DNA from: a virus
Lineage: Duplodnaviria > Heunggongvirae > Uroviricota > Caudoviricetes
DNA: 36,833 nucleotides
Reading direction: 5' to 3' (one strand)
Virus record (IMG/VR): IMGVR_UViG_2571042372_000004
Location: 1-36,833 of that record
Both the position numbers and the translations under genes were made by a program. Every line of letters starts with the position of its first letter. The stretch's first letter is position 1. The notes under the pieces are model-generated. The model was given only the letters and a program-made list of their open reading frames with translations. It did not search any database and was not told the origin of the DNA. Below, piece by piece: positions 1 through 32,767 of the stretch.

Positions 1-1215
1 TTATTTTTCAACCTCTGACAGGGGTAAGTAATGAGATGTCTGTAATGTCAAACTCTCTATCTCAAAGGAAATGTTGCTGATATTTTGACCTGCAAATTGC
101 GGATGCCACTCAGCGCCAGGGAATAACATTTCCGCAGAAGTAGCAACTATAGGGTCAATAGCATTAAGATAATGTAACTTATCAGGTGCGCTGTGTAACA
201 GTAACCACTGCAACTCCACTGAAGGATTTGTAAAATGTTCTAATAAATGAAAGTTATTATGTAGTACGCTTAGTAAAAAACTGGTTTCGTATACTTCCGT
301 TACATATTTCCACCCCTGATATTCAGGTGTATTTTCATAAACAATACCCATACCTTCACAATCACTATGTCGAACTGCTTGTGGTGATAATAGTTGCAAA
401 AGAGACAAAACATCGTCCGCATATTTTTTAACTGGATGACGATTTTGCTTACCTTTTATTTGATCAATTTCAAGTGAATCACCAACAACATTGAGAGCAA
501 TAGTAACATGAGGAATATTATTATTATCACGCAAACTGAATAACCGTAATTTATGTTGCTCAATTTGATTTGCATAATACTCACCATAACCACCGGTAAG
601 ATTTTTTCGATCATCAAACTGGCCTACGCAATGTTGCATATGCCATGATTCATAAGCCATTTCACGACGAAGGTTCGAATGACTGGCATCAAACTCAACA
701 ATTTTTCCGTCTGGCACATCAAGTATTGACTTTACAGTATTTTGTTCACTCGGCTGCCACCCTTTCTCGCGTCGTTGAAGCATCTTTTCATGCTCTTCTT
801 CACGCATTCTGAACGCAACGTAGCAGGTTATGCGCTGTAGTTTTGATTCCAGACGGGTACCACATTTCCTGGAAAGAAATTCCACCAACTCCCGTTCTTT
901 GGTTAATATTTGTTGATGATCGGTTTCGATATAATAAAGTGTCGCAGTTGATACTGAGGCAGTATTAAACTTCGATACCAGCCATTCCGGGATTACATCA
1001 TCATTTTTATTAAACAGTGAATATTCTGCAAGCGAGTTAATTTGTTGCACCATTGGAAAGTCACTAATTAGCCATCGATAAAAATGGTTGAGTAACCATT
1101 TTTGGATGGTCTCATTATCCTGGCGAAACAGACTTCTTTGCAAAATTGCTGTTTTTACTTCCGGGGCATTAATTACATCCCTTGCATTATAATTCTGGTG
1201 AATATTTCCAGTCAT
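1..1215 (-). CDS. hypothetical protein, AT-rich accessory gene (possibly PcfJ-like; domain call tentative)
   Basis: Complete 404-aa ORF (ATG at 1213-1215, stop at 1-3). Strongly AT-rich compared with adjacent yegQ. Contains the motif ESWHMQHCVGQF, which I tentatively associate with PcfJ-like proteins. Outside the prophage. Confidence 0.55.
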   Translation of the reverse strand: MTGNIHQNYNARDVINAPEVKTAILQRSLFRQDNETIQKWLLNHFYRWLISDFPMVQQINSLAEYSLFNKNDDVIPEWLVSKFNTASVSTATLYYIETDHQQILTKERELVEFLSRKCGTRLESKLQRITCYVAFRMREEEHEKMLQRREKGWQPSEQNTVKSILDVPDGKIVEFDASHSNLRREMAYESWHMQHCVGQFDDRKNLTGGYGEYYANQIEQHKLRLFSLRDNNNIPHVTIALNVVGDSLEIDQIKGKQNRHPVKKYADDVLSLLQLLSPQAVRHSDCEGMGIVYENTPEYQGWKYVTEVYETSFLLSVLHNNFHLLEHFTNPSVELQWLLLHSAPDKLHYLNAIDPIVATSAEMLFPGAEWHPQFAGQNISNISFEIESLTLQTSHYLPLSEVEK

Positions 1216-1702
1216 AACATCCGCCCGTGTTTATTATATCACTCAAAGCAATAATTGTTGACTATAGATTTTTTATCTAAATCAGCATGGTTGCAGGTAC
1301 ATACTCAAGTAAGCCACTCAAGAAAATAACGTAAACTCAATAGTGGCAGCGTCACAAACTTTGGAAATTATGTCTTATATTTGCAGTTTATTTTAGTGAA
1401 TAATTGAGATAAATGACATTATTTTACATCCTCAATAATTCAGGCTGTAAGAGGACGGCAAATACATTCATAATTATCAGGGGATGAACATTCAGGAAAG
1501 TAGTCAGTATCGTCAACTTTTTCTTTTATCACTACATGAAGATTTCGTGTAGATACTCCCATCTCTGCCACTTCTCCCCTCACATTTACACTGGAGCTAA
1601 ACCCGCCGATTGCGCTACAATGCCCGCCCTTAAAGTGGGGGCACTCCCCTAACCGCTTCATCAGGTGAAGCGGCTCTGACCTGTCATCAGAACGAGAGAA
1701 TT

Positions 1703-3064
1703 ATGTTTAAACCGGAACTCCTTTCCCCGGCGGGAACGCTGAAAAATATGCGTTACGCTTTCGCTTATGGCGCAGATGCTGTTTATGCGGGCCAGCCGCG
1801 TTACTCCCTGCGTGTACGCAACAACGAATTCAACCACGAAAATCTTCAGCTCGGCATCAATGAAGCCCACGCGCTGGGGAAAAAGTTTTATGTCGTGGTC
1901 AACATTGCACCGCACAACGCCAAGCTGAAAACCTTTATCCGTGACCTGAAACCGGTGGTGGAAATGGGGCCGGATGCGCTGATTATGTCCGATCCAGGGC
2001 TGATTATGCTGGTGCGTGAACACTTCCCGGAAATGCCAATCCACCTCTCGGTACAGGCTAACGCCGTAAACTGGGCGACGGTGAAATTCTGGCAGCAAAT
2101 GGGTCTGACCCGCGTGATCCTCTCTCGCGAACTGTCACTGGAAGAGATTGAAGAGATCCGCAATCAGGTGCCGGATATGGAGATCGAAATCTTCGTTCAC
2201 GGCGCGCTGTGCATGGCCTACTCCGGTCGCTGCCTGCTCTCTGGCTATATCAACAAGCGCGACCCGAACCAGGGCACCTGCACCAACGCCTGCCGCTGGG
2301 AGTACAATGTCCAGGAAGGGAAAGAAGATGACGTCGGCAACATCGTACACAAGTACGAGCCGATTCCGGTGCAAAATGTTGAGCCGACGCTGGGTATCGG
2401 CGCGCCAACCGACAAAGTGTTTATGATCGAAGAAGCCCAGCGTCCGGGCGAGTATATGACCGCGTTTGAAGATGAGCACGGCACTTACATCATGAACTCG
2501 AAAGATCTGCGCGCCATCGCCCATGTTGAACGCCTGACCAAAATGGGCGTGCATTCGCTGAAAATCGAAGGCCGTACCAAATCTTTCTACTATTGCGCAC
2601 GCACCGCGCAGGTTTACCGTAAAGCTATCGATGACGCCGCTGCGGGCAAACCGTTCGATACCAGCCTGCTGGAAACGCTGGAAGGTCTGGCGCATCGTGG
2701 CTATACCGAAGGTTTCCTGCGTCGTCATACCCACGACGATTATCAGAACTACGAATACGGTTATTCGGTTTCTGACCGCCAGCAGTTTGTTGGTGAGTTT
2801 ACCGGTGAGCGCAAGGGGGAGCTCGCGGCGGTAGCGGTGAAAAATAAATTCTCCGTTGGCGACAGCCTTGAGCTGATGACGCCGCAAGGCAACATTAACT
2901 TTACCCTTGAGCATATGGAAAACGCCAAAGGTGAAGCGATGCCGGTCGCACCAGGCGATGGTTATACTGTGTGGCTCCCGGTGCCGCAGGATCTTGAGCT
3001 AAATTACGCGCTGCTGATGCGTAATTTCTCCGGGGAAACCACGCGTAACCCCCACGGTAAGTGA
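1703..3064 (+). CDS. yegQ: peptidase U32 family protein YegQ (TrhP, tRNA hydroxylation-associated)
   Basis: 453-aa ORF with recognisable YegQ sequence (MFKPELLSPAGTLKNMRYAFAYGADAVYAGQPRYSLR...; Cys-rich CMAYSGRC...C..NAC segment). GC-rich host-type composition. ATG preceded by a GAGAG-type RBS. Confidence 0.93.
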   Translation: MFKPELLSPAGTLKNMRYAFAYGADAVYAGQPRYSLRVRNNEFNHENLQLGINEAHALGKKFYVVVNIAPHNAKLKTFIRDLKPVVEMGPDALIMSDPGLIMLVREHFPEMPIHLSVQANAVNWATVKFWQQMGLTRVILSRELSLEEIEEIRNQVPDMEIEIFVHGALCMAYSGRCLLSGYINKRDPNQGTCTNACRWEYNVQEGKEDDVGNIVHKYEPIPVQNVEPTLGIGAPTDKVFMIEEAQRPGEYMTAFEDEHGTYIMNSKDLRAIAHVERLTKMGVHSLKIEGRTKSFYYCARTAQVYRKAIDDAAAGKPFDTSLLETLEGLAHRGYTEGFLRRHTHDDYQNYEYGYSVSDRQQFVGEFTGERKGELAAVAVKNKFSVGDSLELMTPQGNINFTLEHMENAKGEAMPVAPGDGYTVWLPVPQDLELNYALLMRNFSGETTRNPHGK

Positions 3065-5293: not shown

Positions 5294-7741
5294 TTAACCG
5301 TCATGCATCATGCTGGCACGGGCACGCGCACGTTTATCCCGCTCGTATTTTTCGAGCGCATCCTGTAACTGGCGGTCAAGCTGTGTCCCCGGCGCAGTAC
5401 CACCCGTCAGGCTGATGTGATATTCGTTTTTACTCTGGTCCACATAAGAGCGGCCAGCCGGTGCCGTGACTGGCTGATAAGCCTGATAGCCTGCATAAGA
5501 GCTGGTCGCCGGAATATAACCACCGGTGCCATACGTGGCGGCATGAGTTCTGGCGGCGGTCTGGTCAAGTGTGTCTGACTCTTTGTTGATGACCCCGAGC
5601 TTTTCCAGTACCCAGTCAATACCGCTGCGCAGTTTGTTGAACGCATTAAGCGGCAGCATCAGCGCGTCAGCCAGTGCCTGCCCGAACATGACGCCCGTAT
5701 CACGGCAACGGTTCAGGGTGTCCTGGGTGGCTTTGACCGGGGCAATCAGGTTTTTAAACCACTGCCACGCGGCCTGTAACTTTTCGCCCAGCCAGTCAAA
5801 CACCGGCTTAAGTGGCGTGAACAGTTCCCCCACCGGCGCAAATGCCGCTTTCAGCCCTTCAACCACACCGCCAAAGAATGCGCTGACAGGCTCCCAGTAT
5901 TTACGGATAAGCAACGCCCCGGCGACAATGGCGGCCACCACGGCCACAACCGGCCAGCTAATCGCCCCGATGGCCGTCATAACAGCACTACCAACCGTCG
6001 TGAAGATTGCCCCCATTGCGCCTGCTGCCGCGATAATGGCATTGATGCCGGTGATAACCGGCCAGGCTACAAGACCAATGGCACCGATGATGCCAGTAAG
6101 CGCCAGCGCGCCACCGACAATGAGGCCGATGGTTGACGCCAGTGATTTGTTTTTCTGGATCCAGCCGTCGAGTTTTAACACATACTTTGTGGCCGTCTGA
6201 GTGAGCTTACGCAGTGCGCCTTCCTGCTGGTCAAACAGGTCAGTCCCCACCGCCTCATAAGCGGACTGAAACTCCTTAAAGTCACCGCCGAGGTTGTCCT
6301 GCATGATATTTACCAGTTCTGCGGTCTTTCCGTCTGAGGCTTTAAACGCAGCGGTCAGTTTGTCCAGCTTTCCGGTTGACGCGGCAGTCATCAGCACAGC
6401 GGCGGCTGAGCTGGCCTCCTCCCCGAAAATGGTTTTCATGTATTCGGCCTGCTGGGCAGTACCGAGCCGGTTTTTCTCAAAACTGGCCTGCATTTCTTTC
6501 AGAATGGTAAATACTGGTCGGGTGTTTCCCTTGCTGTCTGAGGTTTTCACACCAAGCTCTTTCAGTGCATCCCACGCTTTTCCCGTCGGTGCCTGCAGGC
6601 GGCTTAACACGGCACGGCTTCCCGTCCCCGCCATTGAGCCTGTGATTTTTGCATCATGCAGCGCCCCGACCATTGCGGCGGTTTCTTCAATGCTGACACC
6701 GGCATTTTTTGCCACAGGTGCGGCATAGGTCAGCGCATCGCTCATGCCGTCAAAATCGGCGGCGGTTTTGTTCATCGTCATGGAGAGAACATCCCCGATA
6801 TGAGCGACCTTATCGTTTGAAAGCTGAAAGGCGGATTTCATCCCCATCAGCAGGGCGGCGTTTTCTTCCATCGTGCGGCGGTTCGCCAGCGCCATATTCA
6901 GCGTGACCGGCGTTGCCGCCTGAATGGCATCAACATCCCCACCCGCTTTCGCGATGATTATCTGTGCACCGGCCGCATCATCCGCCGAGGCGGCGGTATT
7001 GTCGCCGAGCTGGCGCGCCTGTTTGCGTAGTGCGGTCATTTCGGCGGAGTCTTTTGCCACTCCGAGCACGGCCTGCAATTCTGAGTTTTTCTGCGCAAAC
7101 TCATAACCGGGCATCAGCAACTTAACTCCGGCCATCGTTCCCGCCGCCGCAATCCCCACACCGGCAGCGCCCACTGAGGCCATATTTCCGGCCAGTTCCT
7201 TTCCGGCCTGATAACGCTGTTTTACTGCGTTAAGTTTTGCCTGTTGTGCACTGACACGCGCCAGTGCGTCACGCTGACGGTTAAGCTGTGCGGTGGTTTC
7301 ACTGATACGGTTTTTCAGTCCCTGCTCATCATGTGCAAGATTGCGGGTATTAATTCCCACAGCGGCCAGTTCCCGCTGCTGGCGTTTAACGGAATCCGTC
7401 AGGCGGTTATATTTCGCCTGTAAGTCCTCCGCCGCACGCTTTGCGGATTCCAGCACTTTCGCCTGAGCACGTGTCGGACGTTCGGTATTTTTAAACTGTG
7501 TGGCAAGGGCTTCGGCTTCCTGCCGCGCCTTTTCAAGTGCATGACCAGTCACGGCGAGCTGTGCACTGGTCTTGCGAAATCCCTCAATACGGGACGCCTG
7601 ACCGTTCAGCTCGCGCAGTGATTTTTGTGTTTCCCGGATATCCCCCGACAGCGATTTGCTCGCTGTGCGGATGGATTTAAACGGGCGGGATGCCTGGTCA
7701 ACAGCCCTGAGCAATACCTGTAATTTTACATTGTTACTCAT
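5294..7741 (-). CDS. T: tail tape measure protein gpT
   Basis: 815-aa ORF rich in Ala/Gly with coiled-coil N-terminal region and hydrophobic central segments, typical of tape measure proteins. Lies between E/E' and U. Confidence 0.9.
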   Translation of the reverse strand: MSNNVKLQVLLRAVDQASRPFKSIRTASKSLSGDIRETQKSLRELNGQASRIEGFRKTSAQLAVTGHALEKARQEAEALATQFKNTERPTRAQAKVLESAKRAAEDLQAKYNRLTDSVKRQQRELAAVGINTRNLAHDEQGLKNRISETTAQLNRQRDALARVSAQQAKLNAVKQRYQAGKELAGNMASVGAAGVGIAAAGTMAGVKLLMPGYEFAQKNSELQAVLGVAKDSAEMTALRKQARQLGDNTAASADDAAGAQIIIAKAGGDVDAIQAATPVTLNMALANRRTMEENAALLMGMKSAFQLSNDKVAHIGDVLSMTMNKTAADFDGMSDALTYAAPVAKNAGVSIEETAAMVGALHDAKITGSMAGTGSRAVLSRLQAPTGKAWDALKELGVKTSDSKGNTRPVFTILKEMQASFEKNRLGTAQQAEYMKTIFGEEASSAAAVLMTAASTGKLDKLTAAFKASDGKTAELVNIMQDNLGGDFKEFQSAYEAVGTDLFDQQEGALRKLTQTATKYVLKLDGWIQKNKSLASTIGLIVGGALALTGIIGAIGLVAWPVITGINAIIAAAGAMGAIFTTVGSAVMTAIGAISWPVVAVVAAIVAGALLIRKYWEPVSAFFGGVVEGLKAAFAPVGELFTPLKPVFDWLGEKLQAAWQWFKNLIAPVKATQDTLNRCRDTGVMFGQALADALMLPLNAFNKLRSGIDWVLEKLGVINKESDTLDQTAARTHAATYGTGGYIPATSSYAGYQAYQPVTAPAGRSYVDQSKNEYHISLTGGTAPGTQLDRQLQDALEKYERDKRARARASMMHDG

Positions 7742-8161
7742 TCGTGTTTCCGCTTCGCCGGAGCGCCTTTTCGCGCCATGTGATGAGTTCGGTCAGGCTC
7801 ATGGGATACAGTTCTGATGGCGGCCAGTGAAATATCACTGCCACATCCGCCATCAGGTCATCGACCGAGAGATTTTTCGGGAACGTCACTGCACCGAGTT
7901 CGGCGACAAAAAACCGACCACCTTACCGGCCAGCGCCACAAGGTCAGGCAGTTCCAGCGCGGCGACTTCCTGCTCGGTCAGCATCGGTGCCGTCATGCGC
8001 GGCAGCACCTTAATCAGTGCATCGACTTCAGAGTTCGCGACCGCAGCCAGACTGACACCGCGCAGCGTCCCGGCACTGGGTTTCATCAGCGTGACCTGTT
8101 CGATGACCTGCTCACCACGCCTGACCGGATTGTCCAGGGTAATCACATTTTCTTTGTTCAT
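7734..8161 (-). CDS. E+E': gpE+E' tail chaperone fusion, made by programmed -1 ribosomal frameshift
   Basis: Slippery heptamer T_TTT_TTG on the minus strand (plus-strand 7907..7913) lies 8 codons before the E stop. Reading the -1 frame from there gives VAELGAVTFPKNLSVDDLMADVAVIFHWPPSELYPMSLTELITWREKALRRSGNTNE and ends at TAA (7734..7736), overlapping the T start. Translated by hand. Confidence 0.65.
7886..8161 (-). CDS. E: tail assembly chaperone gpE
   Basis: 91-aa ORF MNKENVITLDNPVRRGEQVIEQVTLMKPSAG... ending ...GKVVGFLSPNSVQ; P2 gpE size and position. Confidence 0.88.
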   Translation of the reverse strand: MNKENVITLDNPVRRGEQVIEQVTLMKPSAGTLRGVSLAAVANSEVDALIKVLPRMTAPMLTEQEVAALELPDLVALAGKVVGFLSPNSVQ

Positions 8162-8217
8162 GGTTTTCTCACTTATGAATCGGGGTTAACCGGTCAGCCA
8201 GGCTGACCGGATGAAAA

Positions 8218-9939: not shown

Positions 9940-10030
9940 CCGTTTAACTCCGTGGTTAATGGGTGCAACTATTTTCCATTGGGTAGTACATGAGACGCTA
10001 TTTGACCTGGCTGGTCAGTGGATGAAACAA

Positions 10031-10062
10031 CAGATAAAGAAAAGGCGGGCAATCTGCCCGCC
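10031..10062 (-). terminator. putative rho-independent terminator downstream of the 230-aa cargo gene
   Basis: Perfect 8-bp stem GGCGGGCA/TGCCCGCC (10044..10062) with a T-rich tract on the minus strand immediately after it (plus-strand AGATAAAGAAAA 10031..10043). Confidence 0.45.
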
Positions 10063-10198
10063 TGTCCTGATTTGTACACACTCATTTTCCGACTGACAAT
10101 TTACATAGCCAAAACGCTATCAAATCTGACTGCCTGTTTTGAGCGAAGAGGAACCTGAGATTGTGGTATGCTAATTTATGGGGAGCAGGTCAATTGTA

Positions 10199-10891
10199 TT
10201 AGTTATCTTTTTGCCTTTCTTTATCCCATTTCTTTACAGTGGTCTGATACCACTCTTCACGTGCTCGTTGTTCCTCTGCTCTGTCACTTGAATTATAGTT
10301 GTCTGTTTTAATTTTTTTGCTTCCCTGGGAAATCGGCCTCCAGTCTTCTCTAATCTTTTTCATCTGCTCAGCTATCTGTGTCATTGGACTCCTTGCACCT
10401 AAGTAGCTAACCCCCTCGAAAGAAGCCATATCATAAGAATACTCATTCCGCTCTCTTTCAGTTGAGCCCGGCTGTTTAGACCAGCTAATACTAACAGAAT
10501 AAACTTGATCTTTAATCTGGTCATACTTACAAAGACTGCTGTTGAGGGAATGGCCGTTTTTCAATACGCTAACCTTGCTAAATGGTATACCTTTATTTTT
10601 TCTATGTTCTGCATTAACCAGTGGGGGATTAAATCCGACTTCAATATCATAGGCTGGGGCATTTCCGGTATTAGCAATATTGATATCAAAATAAAAAGCA
10701 GCCCAAGAATTTGGTTCAAGAGTCACAACGACATGAGGTTGAACTGATGCGTCAACCATCCTTTTTGTCTCGTCTGCTAATAGCCTTGTTACTCTCCACA
10801 AGAAAAATGTAGCAACTGCTGTTAGCAATGCTGCCAAAGCGGAGATAAGTGTACTTACTGTGTTTATATGCTCTGCGATAAATTCGATCAT
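10199..10891 (-). CDS. membrane-anchored hypothetical protein (cargo gene at the P2 Z/fun position)
   Basis: 230-aa ORF, AT-rich. One predicted N-terminal transmembrane helix (VSTLISALAALLTAVATFFLW) followed by basic residues (RVTRLLADETKR), suggesting a cytoplasmic body. Highly charged C-terminal tail. No family recognised. Confidence 0.7.
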   Translation of the reverse strand: MIEFIAEHINTVSTLISALAALLTAVATFFLWRVTRLLADETKRMVDASVQPHVVVTLEPNSWAAFYFDINIANTGNAPAYDIEVGFNPPLVNAEHRKNKGIPFSKVSVLKNGHSLNSSLCKYDQIKDQVYSVSISWSKQPGSTERERNEYSYDMASFEGVSYLGARSPMTQIAEQMKKIREDWRPISQGSKKIKTDNYNSSDRAEEQRAREEWYQTTVKKWDKERQKDN

Positions 10892-11379
10892 GAGTTGTCC
10901 TTGGGGGCGTACTAATTGTTTTCAATACTAAAATAGCGCCGGGCTTGAAAAATTGCACACTTATGGTTCGATTTACCTCAACAGTTAAGGCTTCTACTTC
11001 CCCCATGCACCTCACCCAGCCCAAGACGGTATGAGGTCTGACAAAGAACTTCCTGACACTTGAAAACGAGGCAACGGCTAGGGTTTCTCGTAGGGCAAGG
11101 ATTGAATACGAAGCCTGTATATTGCTCCGCAAACGCTGCTGAGGGCAGTTTAAATGTTGGGCGTTTATGTAGCCTTTCACTCACCAGCATGAGTTCAATG
11201 TCTGTGAGTTACCGACAACAATATAAAGAGGGTGGCATCATATATCCAAGCTAGAGTCAAATCCTCCAACTGGTTTTATGATCAGTGTCAATTGTTTGAT
11301 TATTGAACGTTTACGAAGCAGCACGGGAGCCATATAACTAATGGGCAGGTATAAGCCTGTATCACGAGGAATCAGTAAA

Positions 11380-11559
11380 ATGGCTGATGATAAGACCAAA
11401 ATCGGTACCCCTGACAATGATTTAATAAGTATCAAACAGGATTACGAGAGACGTGATTGGGCTGAAAAGTTTGGAGTTAGCGAGGCCAAACTTGTTCAAG
11501 CCGTACAGGCTGTAGGTCATTCGGCTAAGAAAGTACAGGCATGGCTTAAAGACCATTAA
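11380..11559 (+). CDS. small DUF3606-like protein
   Basis: Start set at ATG 11380 with GAGGA RBS 9 nt upstream (the ORF track begins at 11341). 59-aa product contains DWAEKFGVSEAKLVQAVQAVGHSAKKVQAWL, which resembles the DUF3606 signature as I recall it. AT-rich. Confidence 0.6.
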   Translation: MADDKTKIGTPDNDLISIKQDYERRDWAEKFGVSEAKLVQAVQAVGHSAKKVQAWLKDH

Positions 11560-11565
11560 TATATG

Positions 11566-11589
11566 AGCGCCTTTCTAGGCGCTTTTTTC
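11566..11589 (+). terminator. rho-independent terminator after the DUF3606-like gene
   Basis: Hairpin AGCGCC-tttcta-GGCGCT followed by TTTTTT, 7 nt after the stop codon. Confidence 0.6.
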
Positions 11590-11611
11590 TTTGTCCTTTG
11601 GGAGATGATTT

Positions 11612-11890
11612 ATGGCTAATAATTTATTTATTACTTACGACCTCATTAAAACGAAAGATTATGCGGCTGTGTATGATGCAATTAAATCTTTAGGAAATTG
11701 GGCTTTAACAACTGAATCGAACTGGTATGTTAACTGTAGTTACTCTGCCGAGGATGCAGCCAAAATTGTGAGGGCGGTCATGGATAGTGATGATAAGCTT
11801 ATTGTTGTAGACGCAACCAATAACTCAGCTTATTGGTACAATCTCTCAGATGAAGTTAGTAACCAAATTCTGACTGAGTGGAACAAGTAA
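11612..11890 (+). CDS. hypothetical protein (92 aa), cargo gene at the Z/fun position
   Basis: 92-aa ORF, AT-rich, with GGGAGATGA-type RBS upstream. No recognisable family. Followed by a strong hairpin. Confidence 0.6.
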   Translation: MANNLFITYDLIKTKDYAAVYDAIKSLGNWALTTESNWYVNCSYSAEDAAKIVRAVMDSDDKLIVVDATNNSAYWYNLSDEVSNQILTEWNK

Positions 11891-11892
11891 TT

Positions 11893-11915
11893 AAAGGGGG
11901 TGGACAGCCCCCTTT
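11893..11915 (+). terminator. stem-loop or putative terminator after the 92-aa gene
   Basis: AAAGGGGG-tggacag-CCCCCTTT perfect 8-bp stem, 2 nt after the stop codon. The U-run is weak, so this may be a bidirectional or processing hairpin. Confidence 0.4.
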
Positions 11916-12110
11916 AATTCAGAAACTATCATGATTGAAACATTAAATATACTGGGTTAATTCTTTCATCCTTGCTCCCTTGCTATATGTCCTGAAAGCG
12001 TCCTTTTTAGCCTTCTGCTCAGTATATCCGGTAATGGCACAGAGCGGACTGCCAGATTAGGCTTTACTCTGTGCCATAGATATGTAAGCTCACACCAGAG
12101 TTCATACAAC

Positions 12111-12638
12111 TTATTGCGGCATTTCCGGCCATTCAGGATTTGCAGGATCCACACGACTGACCAGAACGCTGTAGCGTTCCCATGCCTCCAGTCGACTGCG
12201 CTCCTCATCTGTTGCCATATTCAGCCTGACAGCGCGCTCCAGTGGCAAAATCACGGATTCGGCTTCGGAAAGCAAAGTTGCCTTTTGTGATTCTGCCAGT
12301 TGCTGCTGTTCGTCTGCCGTATAAATCCGCTTAATCACTGCACCATCCTTAAACATCCATTTACCTGAGTCATCAGCACGCCGGTTGGCAGTAATATCAG
12401 GAACCTCAACAACGCTAAAACCTTCAGGATTAAGCGTTGAAGCATCTCTGGTGATAGCGACAATAATATTATTTTCATCGTAAACAATCTTTATTGTGTC
12501 TGGCTGAAAGTTCTTCACTTCCTCATACCAGTTTTTTCCGTCCTCAGAGTAAAGCCAGATAACTCCGTGTTTCTTTGTTAACTCATACTGTTCCAGTGTT
12601 TTAGCATTACCCGCTTTTATGTTCTTTAAGTGCATCAT
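12111..12638 (-). CDS. G: tail fibre assembly protein gpG
   Basis: 175-aa ORF immediately downstream of H; P2 G size and synteny. Confidence 0.85.
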
Positions 12639-26216: not shown

Positions 26217-27250
26217 TGAGCAAGAAAAAAGGGAAAACACCGCAACCTGCGGCAAAAAAAATGACCGCCAGCGCCCCGAAAATGGAGGCATTCACCTTTG
26301 GTGAGCCGGTGCCGGTACTCGACCGCCGTGACATTCTGGATTACGTCGAGTGCATCAGTAACGGCAGATGGTATGAGCCACCGGTCAGCTTTACTGGTCT
26401 GGCAAAAAGCCTGCGTGCTGCCGTGCATCACAGCTCACCGATTTACGTCAAACGTAATATTCTGGCCTCGACATTTATCCCGCATCCGTGGCTTTCACAA
26501 CAGGATTTCAGCCGCTTTGTGCTGGATTTTCTGGTGTTCGGTAATGCGTTTCTGGAAAAGCGTTACAGCACCACCGGTAAGGTCATCAGACTGGAAACCT
26601 CACCGGCAAAATATACCCGCCGTGGCGTGGAAGAGGATGTTTACTGGTGGGTGCCGTCCTTCAACGAGCCGACAGCCTTCGCGCCCGGCTCCGTGTTTCA
26701 CCTGCTGGAGCCGGATATTAATCAGGAGTTGTACGGCCTGCCGGAATATCTCAGCGCCCTTAACTCTGCCTGGCTGAATGAGTCGGCCACGCTGTTCCGC
26801 CGCAAGTATTACGAAAACGGCGCACATGCCGGATACATCATGTACGTCACCGATGCCGTGCAGGATCGCAACGATATCGAAATGCTTCGCGAAAACATGG
26901 TGAAGTCGAAAGGCCGCAACAACTTTAAAAACCTGTTTCTCTATGCCCCGCAGGGGAAAGCTGACGGCATTAAAATTATCCCCCTCAGTGAAGTGGCGAC
27001 GAAAGACGATTTTTTTAATATCAAAAAAGCCAGCGCCGCTGACCTGCTGGACGCGCACCGCATCCCCTTTCAGTTGATGGGAGGCAAGCCGGAGAACGTC
27101 GGGTCGCTGGGAGATATTGAGAAAGTGGCAAAGGTCTTTGTCCGCAATGAGCTTATCCCGTTACAGGACAGGATTCGGGAAATAAACGGCTGGCTCGGTC
27201 AGGAGGTCATCCGCTTTAAAAACTACTCACTGGACACTGACAACGGCTGA
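26216..27250 (+). CDS. Q: portal protein gpQ
   Basis: 344-aa ORF; P2 gpQ size and synteny. Start overlaps the P stop. Confidence 0.9.
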   Translation: MSKKKGKTPQPAAKKMTASAPKMEAFTFGEPVPVLDRRDILDYVECISNGRWYEPPVSFTGLAKSLRAAVHHSSPIYVKRNILASTFIPHPWLSQQDFSRFVLDFLVFGNAFLEKRYSTTGKVIRLETSPAKYTRRGVEEDVYWWVPSFNEPTAFAPGSVFHLLEPDINQELYGLPEYLSALNSAWLNESATLFRRKYYENGAHAGYIMYVTDAVQDRNDIEMLRENMVKSKGRNNFKNLFLYAPQGKADGIKIIPLSEVATKDDFFNIKKASAADLLDAHRIPFQLMGGKPENVGSLGDIEKVAKVFVRNELIPLQDRIREINGWLGQEVIRFKNYSLDTDNG

Positions 27251-27277: not shown

Positions 27278-27419
27278 ACACCCTGTCATCACGCCCTCAC
27301 ACGCTCACCACCGCACAAAACATCCCGCAGACACACCAACGCCCCGGCGCACAATCTAAACGCCATCACGACGCGCTCAGACGCTGAAAAAATAAAATCA
27401 GCACCACCGCCAGCGCGCA

Positions 27420-27438
27420 GTGCTTTCCCCGCCTCGCC
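27420..27438. other. cos site (19-nt cohesive-end sequence)
   Basis: gtgctttccccgcctcgcc is the reverse complement of GGCGAGGCGGGGAAAGCAC, which I recall as the P2 cohesive end. It lies just downstream of Q, as expected. Confidence 0.8.
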
Positions 27439-27767
27439 CGCCCGCTTCATGGGGCGGTTTTAATGCAGTTGCATGAGTACGTTGAATCCTCGCTAGCTGT
27501 GACGTAAAGCAATGAGGACGCATAACTTTGACACATGCAAAACCATGCACCTGATACATGCATAGTTATTACTTTGTAAAAACATAAAAAAAGGAAATCC
27601 CATGAACAAAAATCAAACTATTAATAAAAATTTTTATATCTCTTAGAACAAAAGATTTTGCTTGAACAAAGTAAACTTCTGAGGTAGATCTTTATCGTTT
27701 AGCAAAATAATTCATGTTAAACAGCTTAAATATTTATACAATATCATTGGCAATGATGAGGTTTTAA

Positions 27768-29987
27768 ATGGAACTTAAATTAAAGAATATAACCAGCTAT
27801 AAGAAAGATAGCTTCACGACTCTTAATCTCTCAAAAAAAATTAATATACTTTATGGTCACAACGGTTGTGGAAAATCAACCATATCTAATTATTTCTATA
27901 ATCCAAATAACACGGACTACAAAGAATGCGAATGTCCTTTCATAGATACTTTTCGCCTATTGGTTTATAATACTAAGTTTGTTGAGGATAATTTTTATAA
28001 TGCAAAAGAGCAAAAAGGAGTATTCACTTTAAGTAAGGAAAATGCTGACATTGAAAAAGAATTGTTGGAAAAAGAAGCTATAAGACAAGACCTACTTACA
28101 AAATACAAAGATAAAAAAAACGTTATTGAGCGTTTAATTAAAGATAAAAACAATAAAGAAAATGAATATATTGATTTAATATGGAATAAAGCAGAACCTT
28201 TTAGATCATCTGACTTAAAGAACTTGATGAAAGGTCAGTTAGGAAGCAAGAGATCATTTTATGAGCAAGTTAAAAAAGCCCCTCAAACCACTGACGTTAA
28301 CATCGAGTCACTTGCTCAAGAATATAGTATTCTTTTAAAGAACAAAGATAAATTCACTGCATCAATTACACCTTTAGAAAAATATATCATTTCAGAAAAA
28401 GATAAAGAATCTTTATCCACTCCGATTATAGACTCAAGTAATAGCTATTTGTCAGAAACAATTAAACAACTTCAAAACCTTGACTGGGTGAAAAAAGGGA
28501 AGGAATTATATTTAAATGGCACATGTTGCCCATTCTGCCAAGAAGACACTATTAAAGACAAATTTTTAGAAGCAATTGAATCTATCTTTGATGATAGCTA
28601 CTCCAAGAAAGTTGACCAAATACGCATTATCAGATCGTCTTATGAATCCGCTACCATAGATAATTTAAGAAAAATAAAACAAGAGATTTCATCTTGTGAA
28701 TTAATCACCTCAAAAGAAAAAGATATAACATCATCTCATATAGCGTTATTAGAGGAAATAGCAAACAAAAACTTAAAATTGATGTTAGATAAAATCAATA
28801 ACCCATCTATATCTATTATTTTGGAATCCAATAGCGACCTTGAAGCAAAGGTAGTTGATAATATAGCAGAGTACAACAATAGAATTAAAGAAATAAATAT
28901 TAAAGTCAAACAATTTAAGGATAGTGAAAAGTCTATACGTTACAAAATATGGGGAGCAATAAGAGAATTATGCAACGCTGAGTTTGAAGCTTTCTCAAAA
29001 TATGAGAATGACTATAAAATCATTTATGAACAATATCAACTTGAATTAAATACCATAAAAGAACAAGGAGATAACAATAGCAAAAAGATCAAAGAGCTAC
29101 GCGATCAAATATCTAACATTGATGCAACCATAGATTCTATAAATCAACGTCTAAAATTATTAGGAATTTATGGTTTTAGCATAAAAAAACACACTGAGAG
29201 CAATGATAAATATATTATATCACGTTCTGAAAACACAACAGATAAAGATGTATACAGATCTCTTAGCGAGGGTGAAAAAACTTTAATTACCTTTCTCTAC
29301 TTTCTGGAATGCTGTAAAGGTAAGACAGATAAGAATGATACGGATATGCGAGATGTATTTATCGTTATTGATGATCCAATATCCAGCCTCTCTCAAAATT
29401 ATGTGTACGATATTGCTTCAATAATTCACCATGAAATAATCAACAATAACAAAGCAGTAAAGAAAACATTAATACTCACACATAACCTTTATTTCTTTCA
29501 TGAACTTATCAAATTAGCTCCTAGAAGCAAAGAAGATAGAACATTCAAGCGTGATTATTATCTTGGACGAGTAACAAAAAATGAATATAGCATAATTACA
29601 GAAATAGAGAAAAAGAGCATTCAGAATGAATACCAGTCCCTATGGCAAGTATTAAAAGATGCGAAGGATGGAAGGGTAAATAAAGTTATAATACCTAACA
29701 TCATGAGAAATATACTGGAATACTACTTCGCATTTGTTCATAGAACGGATGCATTACAGACAGAGTTAAATAAACTTGCTAGCGATGATAAGAATAATGA
29801 TTTTAGAGCATTTTATAGATACATTAATAGAGGTTCCCATTCAGATGCAGTTAATATCACAGACATGGGAGATATATCTCCAGAGAAATATATGGAGCAA
29901 CTAAAAACCATTTTTCGTATGACTGGTGATGAAAAACATTATTTGAAAATGATGGACGAAGAGGAAGAGAAAACCGTTACCGCTTAG
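27768..29987 (+). CDS. ABC/Rad50-like ATPase with coiled-coil CxxC insert and C-terminal putative nuclease domain (RloC/PrrC-like); defence candidate at the tin/old position
   Basis: 739-aa ORF, extremely AT-rich, GAGG RBS. Walker A GHNGCGKST; ABC signature LSEGEK; Walker B DVFIVIDDP; H-loop-like LILTHNLYF. A long K/E-rich predicted coiled coil between Walker A and signature carries CPFC (zinc-hook-like). C-terminal segment has R-x3-E (RNILE) plus downstream His residues, reminiscent of the PrrC/RloC anticodon-nuclease triad. Confidence 0.85.
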   Translation: MELKLKNITSYKKDSFTTLNLSKKINILYGHNGCGKSTISNYFYNPNNTDYKECECPFIDTFRLLVYNTKFVEDNFYNAKEQKGVFTLSKENADIEKELLEKEAIRQDLLTKYKDKKNVIERLIKDKNNKENEYIDLIWNKAEPFRSSDLKNLMKGQLGSKRSFYEQVKKAPQTTDVNIESLAQEYSILLKNKDKFTASITPLEKYIISEKDKESLSTPIIDSSNSYLSETIKQLQNLDWVKKGKELYLNGTCCPFCQEDTIKDKFLEAIESIFDDSYSKKVDQIRIIRSSYESATIDNLRKIKQEISSCELITSKEKDITSSHIALLEEIANKNLKLMLDKINNPSISIILESNSDLEAKVVDNIAEYNNRIKEINIKVKQFKDSEKSIRYKIWGAIRELCNAEFEAFSKYENDYKIIYEQYQLELNTIKEQGDNNSKKIKELRDQISNIDATIDSINQRLKLLGIYGFSIKKHTESNDKYIISRSENTTDKDVYRSLSEGEKTLITFLYFLECCKGKTDKNDTDMRDVFIVIDDPISSLSQNYVYDIASIIHHEIINNNKAVKKTLILTHNLYFFHELIKLAPRSKEDRTFKRDYYLGRVTKNEYSIITEIEKKSIQNEYQSLWQVLKDAKDGRVNKVIIPNIMRNILEYYFAFVHRTDALQTELNKLASDDKNNDFRAFYRYINRGSHSDAVNITDMGDISPEKYMEQLKTIFRMTGDEKHYLKMMDEEEEKTVTA

Positions 29988-30234
29988 GCCGCATATCATC
30001 GGGTTGGGTAAGAACGACGGTGTTCACACACCGTCTCCCACTTACCGAAACGATAGCGATTGTACTGACGTACTTTCACTAACTTTAACATGAGATTATC
30101 TCCATGCCAGCACTATTGTTGCCAATAGCAGCCTTTACACCCTTTGTATAAAGCTAATACCAAGAGCAATGCAAGGATACCCCAAGCGGTAACTGGCGTG
30201 GATTCTAGAGCAGCCTAACTAAAAAATCAAAGCA

Positions 30235-32502
30235 TTAATTAAATCCCGGCCACTCATCATTTACCGGATACCTGAAGTTTACCCCCTCATAATTTACGGT
30301 TGCCCCACGCGCCAGCGCCTCAAGCTCCCATCGCTGAGGCCTGATACCGTTCTGACCAAGGTCAACGCGGATACGGGGGATTTGCATTCGTTCCGACCGG
30401 GTCAGTCTGGCCGAAGGCGCAATTTCATGCGGTTTTAACGGGCTTCCGTTTCTTTGCTGACGATTTGGTGTTCTCAGTTCGTGTTTTAATGCCCCCCTGA
30501 GCGCCCTCACGACATCCGGGTCATTCCATTCGATAACACCGTCATCGACCAGATTAAGCACGGCTGCGGCATGTTCAGAAGGTGTGGGAGCCGTTAACGA
30601 AGTATCACTGCCGGTGAACTTTCCACAGTTATTGACAGGACTCCGAGGCGCGGCGATGCCGCTTTTTAAAGTCAAAGGCTCAACGACCGGAACTTTCGGC
30701 ACAATGCGCCAGTCCGTCGTTCTGGTGATATGAATATGACGCGCGCCGAGATGCGGCGCGTAAATGCCGACCACTCTCTCGACTTCTTCCTCGTACTCGT
30801 TAACGTCATCCGACGGGCTACGGGCAACCCTGACAGTCTGACAATCGCGCGGGACATTTGCCCCACCCTGCGCGCTGATATACAACGCAAAATCACCACT
30901 GTCTGCGGCAGCGCGAGCAGCCTCGACGCGTTCGTCAAACTCATCAGCAATACTGACGCCGCGAGGCAATTTGCGTAGTTCACGGTAAGCCCCCATTGTC
31001 GGCAGTCCAACCGTTTTAAATTGCGGGATGCGCCACGTTGACGCCCATGCGGTAACAGCCGCGGCAGTATCTTTAAGCGGCTTACCGGTATCGTTATCGA
31101 GCTGACCATCCAGTGCATAGCCGTCGATATTTTTTGAAATGTATTTCGCGATATATCCCGCAGCACCGCCCCGGTTAAGGTGCTTTGCCTGAAAACGGTT
31201 TCGCGCTGCTCCTCTTTCGTCGCCATCCTCTTTGAGCGCATAGCGACGCATGATTTCGATAATCTGGTTACGCTGGCGCGAATTACAAAAAAGCATCATA
31301 TGCCAGTGCGGCGTTCCGTCGTGGTGTGGCTCGACGACACGCAAACCGTAGACCTGTAAATCATTATCCTTGAATGCCGTGCGCATCAGGCTCCAGATGC
31401 GGCAGAGATAACGCTGCGCATCCTTTGGATTAAATGCCTCATCGTTCCAGCCGTGATTAAGCTGAACGGTTTTACTTTCGCCTTTTCTGACCTGACGAGT
31501 CGGGTGATACTTTGACGGCGCAGTCAGCGTGATAAACATCCCCACATCACCCTCTGCGGCGGCGTAACGCTCAATACCGGCAATGGTGTTCATCAGCTCC
31601 ATCCGGCGAATTTCAGGATTAGAAATACTGCCCATCACCTTACTGATAAGGTCGATGCGCTCGCCGGTTTCCCTGTTTTCAAGGTCACACGATTTAAGAA
31701 ATTCCAGATTTGCCTGGCGGCGCGCACGCACATCACGAATGGCGTGTTTACTGGCATAAGGAGAACGGTCTTTATTGACCTCCCCGACAGCTATCAGTAA
31801 CGCTTCATGCCAGCGCATACGCTGGCCTTTAAGCTGATGAGTCCACCACTCATCGTTAAACAGACGGGCAATGGCAGAATATGCCTGCCTCGTGGTCATC
31901 TGCCCTTTACGGTATTTTTTCCAGTAGAGAGGGGAAATATTGAAAGCACGTGCAGCGCCAGCAACATGACCATAGAGGTGAGCCTGCGCCTCATCCGTAA
32001 ACAGCGATTCTTTTTCGCCATGCGCATCCACCCAGGCATCGCTGAGTTCCTCATACATCATGAAAAGCTGCGATGAGATACGGGCAGCAAACTTTTTCAG
32101 CTCCTTGTCATTCATTCCCGGCAGGCGCGCATAGTGGTCACGCTCTGCCAGAAACAGCAACGACGCGTCGGTGTTCATTTCATGGCGCTGATTCACACGC
32201 TCAATGCGCGGCCATAAACGACGCTGAAAAGTGGATGTGAGGAAATAAAACCCGTGTACCGGGCTTTTATTGCGCCGGATGTAGTCATAGCGTGAAGTAA
32301 ACAGCGAGCGCAAAAAGTAAGGCAGGCGGTTAATCGTGGATAAAACACCTTGCACCTGACGCATCTCGTCACGTGTAAGGGGTCTTTCGCGCCCGACGGC
32401 CTCGCGTGGCGCGTTCCATGCATAAGCACCGGTAAACGCCTTACCGGTGCCTGCAGCAAATGCTGAAGGAGGGACAAAACGCCCGGAGGCTTTAACGGCC
32501 AT
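30235..32502 (-). CDS. A: replication initiation endonuclease gpA (rolling-circle)
   Basis: 755-aa product with start set at the internal ATG (MAVKASGRFVPP...); the ORF track extends 14 codons upstream. P2 gpA size and synteny. Confidence 0.9.
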   Translation of the reverse strand: MAVKASGRFVPPSAFAAGTGKAFTGAYAWNAPREAVGRERPLTRDEMRQVQGVLSTINRLPYFLRSLFTSRYDYIRRNKSPVHGFYFLTSTFQRRLWPRIERVNQRHEMNTDASLLFLAERDHYARLPGMNDKELKKFAARISSQLFMMYEELSDAWVDAHGEKESLFTDEAQAHLYGHVAGAARAFNISPLYWKKYRKGQMTTRQAYSAIARLFNDEWWTHQLKGQRMRWHEALLIAVGEVNKDRSPYASKHAIRDVRARRQANLEFLKSCDLENRETGERIDLISKVMGSISNPEIRRMELMNTIAGIERYAAAEGDVGMFITLTAPSKYHPTRQVRKGESKTVQLNHGWNDEAFNPKDAQRYLCRIWSLMRTAFKDNDLQVYGLRVVEPHHDGTPHWHMMLFCNSRQRNQIIEIMRRYALKEDGDERGAARNRFQAKHLNRGGAAGYIAKYISKNIDGYALDGQLDNDTGKPLKDTAAAVTAWASTWRIPQFKTVGLPTMGAYRELRKLPRGVSIADEFDERVEAARAAADSGDFALYISAQGGANVPRDCQTVRVARSPSDDVNEYEEEVERVVGIYAPHLGARHIHITRTTDWRIVPKVPVVEPLTLKSGIAAPRSPVNNCGKFTGSDTSLTAPTPSEHAAAVLNLVDDGVIEWNDPDVVRALRGALKHELRTPNRQQRNGSPLKPHEIAPSARLTRSERMQIPRIRVDLGQNGIRPQRWELEALARGATVNYEGVNFRYPVNDEWPGFN

Positions 32503-32767
32503 ATGAGCCAAAAGCCTCTGAACAACGCCTGCTGAGTTGCTCAACCTGCGCGTTTAAATCAGCAAAAGACTTTGCGCTTCCGGTCAGAATATCGTGATGC
32601 ATCAGGCCGGAAACGAGCTGGCTTAATTTCGGATAATAACCAACCACCGCCAGCCATTCCTGACCGGCGTTTTTACCGCTTTCCGCTCTCTTTTTCTCGT
32701 GGAGAATAAACTGAAAGCTGTCACTGGTAACGACATAACGTTCGCCAATTTCAATACGAATACTCAT
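32492..32767 (-). CDS. small phage protein (P2 orf83 position)
   Basis: 91-aa ORF in the early operon between the TraR-like gene and A; position equivalent to P2 orf83. Confidence 0.6.
   Translation of the reverse strand: MSIRIEIGERYVVTSDSFQFILHEKKRAESGKNAGQEWLAVVGYYPKLSQLVSGLMHHDILTGSAKSFADLNAQVEQLSRRCSEAFGSYGR

Follow-up and report, generated by a model that had tools for sequence, protein, structure and literature searches.

A probable RloC-type anticodon nuclease gene in the cos-proximal cargo locus of a P2-like prophage

The open reading frame between cos and gene A

The DNA analysed here is a stretch of 36,833 nt, termed the window (IMG/VR record IMGVR_UViG_2571042372_000004, positions 1 to 36,833), and all coordinates are window positions. 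The window represents a P2-like prophage and displays genes for an integrase, Cox, a C-type regulator, gene A, portal, terminase, capsid and tail proteins. Between the portal gene and gene A there is a single large open reading frame (ORF) of 739 amino acids (aa), referred to below as the rloC-type gene. The features of the locus are listed in Table 1.

The rloC-type gene has a Shine-Dalgarno sequence, GAGG, at positions 27758–27761, 6 nt 5′ of the start codon. Its guanine-plus-cytosine (GC) content is 0.29–0.31, compared with about 0.55 in both flanks. As about 8% of random codons are stops at such a composition, the ORF is not a chance frame; by our own arithmetic the probability of an open run of 739 codons is about e^-62. 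A promoter scan gave sites no more numerous than in shuffled controls.

To the left of the gene, the portal gene ends at 27250 and is followed by a hairpin terminator and the P2/P4 cos core. The neighbours of the rloC-type gene are the portal gene and gene A, and neither hsd nor mod/res genes occur nearby. A partner ORF hidden in the surrounding intergenic DNA was also considered and rejected, as no other ORF of at least 60 aa is present there; the short ORFs of this region are confined to the GC-rich cos and backbone sequence. In Escherichia coli LD93-1 the gene is found with 100% nucleotide identity and the same neighbours, and is annotated merely as "AAA family ATPase" (WP_021520307.1). An earlier note on this DNA, made from the letters alone, had described one very AT-rich 739-aa gene, without a partner, at the position where P2 carries tin and old. 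The coordinates agree exactly with the ORF list, and the base composition, the position and the absence of a partner gene are all borne out; homologues in Vibrio, which are found in unrelated islands, are single genes as well.

Table 1. Positions of the rloC-type gene, its motifs and other features in the window. "Invariant" refers to an alignment of 32 homologous sequences.
Feature	Position	Strand	Basis or remark
rloC-type gene, 739 aa, ATG start	27768..29987	+	ORF list; protein identical to RefSeq WP_021520307.1 "AAA family ATPase"
Walker A / P-loop GHNGCGKST (aa 30–38; K36)	27855..27881	+	G30, N32, G33, G35, K36, T38 invariant
Helical insert (aa ~93–446) splitting the ABC head; coiled-coil/zinc-hook region	28044..29105	+	AlphaFold helices 93–141 through 403–446
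CPFC zinc-hook motif (C254, C257)	28527..28538	+	C254, P255, F256, C257 invariant
ABC signature LSEGEK (aa 499–504)	29262..29279	+	L499, S500, E501, G502, E503 invariant
Walker B / D-loop DVFIVIDDP (aa 529–537)	29352..29378	+	D535, D536, P537 invariant, then S540
H-loop (linchpin) His572	29481..29483	+	H572 invariant, LTHN context
Putative C-terminal anticodon-nuclease (divergent HEPN-type) domain, aa ~615–739	29610..29984	+	
Arg647-X3-Glu651, putative catalytic triad (MRNILE)	29706..29720	+	N644, R647, E651 invariant
Ser690-His691, putative catalytic triad (NRGSHS)	29835..29840	+	S690, H691 invariant
P2-type cos core (GGCGAGGCGGGGAAAGCAC on the minus strand), backbone landmark left of the cassette	27419..27437	-	String also in P4 cos-proximal clones (Rousset et al. 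2022, Table S2)
AT-rich cargo cassette, differing between P2-like prophages with different rloC alleles	27477..29985		Sliding identity to APEC O1; GC profile
Replication endonuclease gene A, right neighbour	30235..32544	-	ORF list and LD93-1 annotation
ORF, 230 aa, in island 10000–12100	10199..10891	-	
ORF, 142 aa, in island 10000–12100	10752..11180	-	
ORF, 92 aa, in island 10000–12100	11612..11890	+	
ORF, 251 aa	17318..18073	-	Low-GC stretch (~0.43), GC skew -0.27, between baseplate and tail-completion genes
ORF, 404 aa, from the window edge	left end	-	Weak PcfJ-like match, GC 0.37–0.38
Peptidase_U32 gene	1703..3064		Pfam scan of window ORFs

Domain structure and database matches of the protein

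Conservation was analysed in an alignment of 32 homologous sequences with identities down to 25%. The core residues of the ATPase motifs are invariant (Table 1). GKST is not followed by an arginine, a difference from PrrC that has been reported for RloC. The same alignment was used for an AlphaFold model, with a mean predicted local distance difference test score (pLDDT) of 82. Its layout is an N-lobe (aa 1–88), a helical insert (~93–446), an ATPase C-lobe (470–585), a beta hairpin (597–612) and a bundle of six to seven helices (621–728). A Foldseek comparison with the PDB yields Rad50 heads as top matches, followed by SMC and cohesin heads, the retron Ec83 ATPase, Lamassu LmuB and PtuA. The earlier note had described a Rad50-like ATPase with Walker A, LSEGEK and Walker B motifs, and both the motif search and the structural matches agree with this.

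The insert segment, when isolated, matches AAA_13 at positions 92–465 and gives a weak match to the PADLOC LmuB model. A profile of the hook region (aa 205–320) was compared with all PDB sequences; the two best matches are Pyrococcus furiosus Rad50 zinc hooks (1L8D and 6ZFF, E-value ~0.006), and the alignment places CPFC on the CPVC of Rad50. In the AlphaFold model CPFC is in a loop (249–263) near the midpoint of the insert, with ~160 helical residues before it and ~190 after. As modelled, this placement has the topology needed for a hook at the tip of an arm that folds back on itself. The predicted insert is a segmented helical assembly and not one smooth coiled coil, the ascending arm being broken into short helices. 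Thus the long coiled coil bearing CPFC that was proposed earlier holds for the hook, which is invariant and best matched by Rad50 zinc hooks, but the coiled coil itself appears segmented.

The C-terminal region displays a putative nuclease triad. RloC proteins follow the rule Arg-X3-Glu-X36–52-His, often with a Ser before the His (Davidov and Kaufmann 2008), and under this rule R647 and E651 correspond to R320 and E324 of PrrC and to R692 and E696 of Geobacillus GkaRloC. The spacing, R647-X3-E651-X39-S690-H691, is inside the published range and the Ser precedes the His. H724 is also invariant in this domain. The isolated segment of aa 610–739 matches the C-terminal section of AAA_13 (E-value = 5e-18, above the gathering score) and also the PADLOC PDC-S06 models. 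A separate AlphaFold model of aa 585–739 (pLDDT 81; predicted template modelling score, pTM, 0.75) shows a beta hairpin plus helices. The R-x3-E...H arrangement pointed out in the earlier note, as reminiscent of PrrC and RloC, thus fits the published rule and is invariant in the alignment. A nuclease-type module is present where the note placed it, although it is nearer 125 aa (~615–739) than the ~150 aa suggested, and is preceded by the beta hairpin.

In database searches, Pfam AAA_13 matches nearly the entire protein (aa 16–716, E-value = 2e-102), and the N-terminal Pfam models AAA_23, SMC_N and ABC_tran match at the Walker A region. The PADLOC PDC-S06 model PDLC04886 gives an E-value of 5.1e-253, with aa 2–732 aligned to profile positions 4–725 of 727. 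With the full protein as query, the PADLOC PrrC model matches aa 456–734 (E-value = 3e-14). Of the profile checks that the earlier note had proposed, the one against AAA_13 is positive. NCBIfam has no model for the protein, and PHROGs contains the family under the label "unknown function" only. A sequence search of the PDB with the single protein gave no relevant match, and with the full-family profile only weak P-loop and coiled-coil matches. To our knowledge, no structure of PrrC or RloC has been solved that could serve for comparison.

Homologues are full-length (720–765 aa). They are found in Enterobacteriaceae with 54%–70% identity, in Vibrio and Neptuniibacter with 36%–39%, and in Chlorobi and other metagenomic sequences with 25%–34%. 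One of them carries the Joint Genome Institute (JGI) label "wobble nucleotide-excising tRNase". A second, profile-based search yielded mostly the same clade again, plus proteins of ~800 aa.

Relationship to RloC and proposed function

RloC is defined by PrrC-type ABC motifs, a CXXC zinc-hook insert between Walker A and the signature motif, and the C-terminal triad; the family ranges from 658 to 897 aa and is usually unlinked to a type I/III restriction-modification (R-M) locus (Davidov and Kaufmann 2008). The window protein has all three of these sequence properties, its length of 739 aa is inside the range, and no R-M genes are nearby.

An E. coli orthologue at the comparable locus was already present in the original description of the family. 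Orthologue 51 in Table S1 of Davidov and Kaufmann (2008) is YP_852004 of Escherichia coli APEC O1, with 738 aa and flanks given as "Phage replication initiation, Capsid", and the same laboratory later writes of "E. coli APECO1 RloC". In the APEC O1 chromosome (positions 925932–928148) this is a 738-aa "AAA family ATPase", now WP_000423308.1, in a P2-like prophage that has gene A on one side of it and the portal gene on the other. It shows 65% identity to the window protein over the full 739 aa, has all motifs in common with it and occupies the same gpQ-gpA slot; it is a different allele, with ~70% nucleotide identity to the window gene. Anantharaman et al. (2013) described an APEC O1 ABC-HEPN protein as typical of prophages, and, going by position and description, the orthologue is probably their prototype "APECO1_4465".

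The gpQ-gpA hotspot of P2 has been catalogued across all E. coli genomes, and the locus is an experimentally supported anti-phage hotspot (Rousset et al. 2022). The exact accession of the window protein, WP_021520307, is listed there in Table S5A as "AAA_13". In Table S5B the AAA_13 single-gene system is the fifth commonest (420 of 18,150 loci) and carries the note "RloC-like". The window gene is thus an already known and catalogued member of the RloC family and not a discovery.

There is a close likeness to RloC of Geobacillus kaustophilus (GkaRloC) and Acinetobacter baylyi (AbaRloC), in which an ABC ATPase, a CxxC insert and a nuclease triad are likewise joined in one polypeptide, and which are stand-alone, not tied to R-M systems and laterally mobile, as is the window gene. 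The window protein is shorter than these two (739 aa versus 804 and 826 aa) and, unlike them, belongs to a P2-like prophage, where its gene occupies the hotspot next to cos. PrrC (E. coli EcoPrrC) shares the ABC motifs and the logic of the nuclease triad; however, it has ~400 aa and no coiled-coil/zinc-hook insert, in contrast to the ~350-aa insert of the window protein, and its gene always belongs to a type Ic hsd locus, by which it is kept silent, rather than to a prophage hotspot. It also uses GTP/dTTP and nicks rather than excises (Klaiman 2012, 2013). Rad50/SbcC and Lamassu LmuB resemble the window protein in the fold of the ATPase head and in having a CxxC hook within a helical insert, but their arms are far longer, their nucleases are separate subunits (Mre11/SbcD, LmuA) and they have no C-terminal RNase domain. 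PADLOC PDC-S06, the full-length single-gene match, is a computational candidate label without a described mechanism and overlaps the older RloC family.

P2 Old is found at the same hotspot and is also a single-protein ABC-ATPase sensor fused to a nuclease. Its effector is a TOPRIM domain and it has no CxxC zinc-hook insert, whereas the window protein has the helical domain of PrrC and RloC. The two are functional analogues, homologous in the ATPase at most. A 2026 preprint describes P2 Old as a DNA-activated abortive tRNase with a TOPRIM effector. As P2 Old is the usual resident of the slot, the locus would exchange analogous devices, and it appears to swap between two unrelated effector folds with apparently the same job.

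From its sequence, the product of the window gene is probably an RloC-type anticodon nuclease that stands alone. The P2-like prophage would carry it as lysogenic-conversion cargo, placed in the defence hotspot next to cos. The interpretation given in the earlier note is thereby supported. Judged by homology only, the most likely function is that of an anticodon nuclease which is triggered by DNA breaks or DNA ends and aborts phage infection. The steps below are modelled on the biochemistry of GkaRloC and AbaRloC, for which DNA- and ATP-dependent activation and induction by double-strand breaks have been described (Klaiman 2012, 2013). In GkaRloC, anticodon nuclease activity is lost on mutation of R692, E696 or H737 and is deregulated in the hook mutant C291G (Davidov and Kaufmann 2008).

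In a lysogen, the ATPase/zinc-hook switch of the protein itself would keep the nuclease silent. Linear DNA or double-strand breaks, e.g. from infection by a competing phage, would stimulate ATP hydrolysis and switch the nuclease on. It would then attack certain tRNAs (those for Glu, Gln or Lys in the orthologues studied) by cutting at, or excising, the wobble position, translation would stop, and the competing infection would be aborted. Excision of the wobble nucleotide, unlike a nick, would defeat tRNA repair of the T4 type (T4 Pnk/Rnl1). The protein would need no partner gene, as a single polypeptide combines sensor, switch and effector.

Several points weigh against this proposal. The canonical HEPN arginine (Rx4–6H) is not conserved across the family: an R684-x6-H691 motif is present in the window protein, but R684 and R688 are replaced (by Y and D) in distant homologues, and the invariant arginine is R647, which precedes H691 by 44 residues. 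When isolated, the last 130 aa (610–739) give no match to the PADLOC PrrC model at E-values up to 10. Excision of the wobble nucleotide with a DNA-dependent ATPase switch was shown for GkaRloC and AbaRloC only, and both substrate choice and wobble excision may differ in the window protein. Phage exclusion by canonical RloC was proposed, not demonstrated (Davidov and Kaufmann 2008; Klaiman 2012, 2013). The AAA_13 system was outside the set cloned and challenged by Rousset et al. (2022), and no phage-challenge data for P2-borne RloC alleles were found in the literature.

Part of this would also suit an ABC-gated RNase of the PrrC/RloC lineage that has another target (other tRNA sites, mRNA or rRNA) or another trigger (a phage protein or a nucleotide). 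The residues for substrate recognition are known for PrrC only, the segmented body of the modelled insert is not a plain Rad50 arm and could therefore bind a ligand other than DNA, and cleavage of tRNAs at other positions, following the sensing of DNA, has been reported for P2 Old of the same locus, which shows how varied such effectors are. We consider this unlikely, as the zinc hook and the Rad50-like head are the parts of RloC that have been linked by experiment to activation by linear DNA, and the hook residues are the most conserved features of the insert. In another reading the protein would be a DNA-binding ATPase like Rad50/SbcC or LmuB, which either works on DNA itself or brings in a nuclease of the host, with the C-terminal domain as a non-catalytic adaptor. 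The closest solved structures (Rad50, SMC, Lamassu LmuB and the retron Ec83 ATPase), the weak LmuB match of the insert and the weak assignment of the C-terminal fold are all consistent with it. What makes it very improbable is the C-terminal domain, where N644, R647, E651, S690 and H691 are invariant at 25% overall identity, which is the signature of a catalytic site, and match RloC positions whose mutation abolishes RNase activity; in addition, neither this locus nor those of Vibrio contain a partner gene for a nuclease.

That the gene is a diverged P2 old, i.e. an OLD-family nuclease of ABC ATPase plus TOPRIM, was suggested by the shared genomic position and the N-terminal ABC ATPase, and the earlier note had named such a C-terminus as an outcome that would speak against its proposal. 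This identity was rejected: no TOPRIM, OLD, GajA or AriB model matches at E-values up to 1–10, the C-terminal model has a hairpin plus helices without the alpha/beta TOPRIM sheet, and Old has no CxxC helical insert. Its probability is negligible. It is also quite improbable that the gene is silent or decaying cargo without a current function in the lysogen. The very AT-rich DNA is a likely target of H-NS silencing, no promoter rises above chance, and truncated or disrupted copies exist in some E. coli genomes; against this, the ORF is intact with a good Shine-Dalgarno sequence and all catalytic residues preserved, the allele is conserved at 98.9%–100% identity in 20 complete E. coli genomes, and its protein cluster comprises 417 member sequences.

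As a finding, an RloC-type nuclease in this slot adds little, because the family was defined in 2008, the 2022 catalogue already lists the protein and PADLOC recognises it. In practice, it offers a tractable native E. coli RloC in a liftable 2.5-kb cassette of a well-understood prophage. There is a small chance that the P2-borne RloC clade could give direct in vivo proof of RloC as an anti-phage abortive-infection system, and could show that the cos-proximal slot repeatedly recruits non-homologous fusions of a DNA-sensing ABC ATPase with a tRNase (Old with TOPRIM, RloC with a HEPN-type domain). More boldly, and drawing on its modelled shape, the segmented insert may be a compact sensor of a signal other than DNA ends, e.g. 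a phage protein or P2's own cos ends; if so, the trigger would be new.

The cassette, its distribution and other possible cargo

A sliding comparison with the APEC O1 prophage shows the extent of the exchanged DNA. Identity is 0.9–1.0 through the portal end, the terminator and cos up to ~27476, is 0.4–0.8 over the leader and the gene, and returns to 0.87–0.97 from ~29975, a few codons before the stop. The drop and the return of identity therefore delimit a swapped unit of ~2.5 kb. The right junction (29975–29987) appears to be inside the last rloC codons; P2-borne alleles of 54%–70% identity end in ...(V/A)TA, and the downstream DNA that follows is near-identical among them.

The leader is diverged from that of the APEC O1 allele except for two shared blocks, at 27528–27550 (TGACACATGCAAAAnCAnGCAC) and 27661–27694 (CTTGAACA...AGGTAGATCTTTA). 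A role as promoter or operator is possible for them, and neither block stood out in the generic promoter scan. On the other side, 29 nt 3′ of the rloC stop, there is a hairpin with a 7-bp stem (GACGGTG-TTCACA-CACCGTC, positions 30016–30035) in backbone sequence that is kept in the APEC O1 prophage. It lacks a following T-run on both strands and is hence no canonical intrinsic terminator.

When diverged alleles are included, the gene is found in 113 of 5426 complete E. coli genomes and is always chromosomal. Some E. coli carry truncated copies of the family or copies interrupted by the insertion sequence IS5, and one 546-aa form has 1244 member sequences; this suggests recurrent inactivation of a potentially toxic gene. 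Outside the P2 prophage context, a 39%-identical homologue (gene at 6001–8199) stands alone in a variable island on contigs of Vibrio splendidus. A gene of the phage integrase family adjoins it in one strain, followed by conserved small unannotated genes, including one with a weak DUF4145 match.

Other regions of the window may carry cargo as well. A second low-GC island (~0.41) is found at positions 10000–12100. It directly follows, on the downstream side, the gene for tail-fibre assembly (12111..12638, Caudo_TAP) and has the position of the Z/fun cargo slot of P2. Its three ORFs have no Pfam or PADLOC match, and neither has the 251-aa ORF at the orf30 cargo position of P2. At the left end of the window, positions 1–3064, with the 404-aa ORF and the Peptidase_U32 gene, are probably host DNA or DNA of another island.

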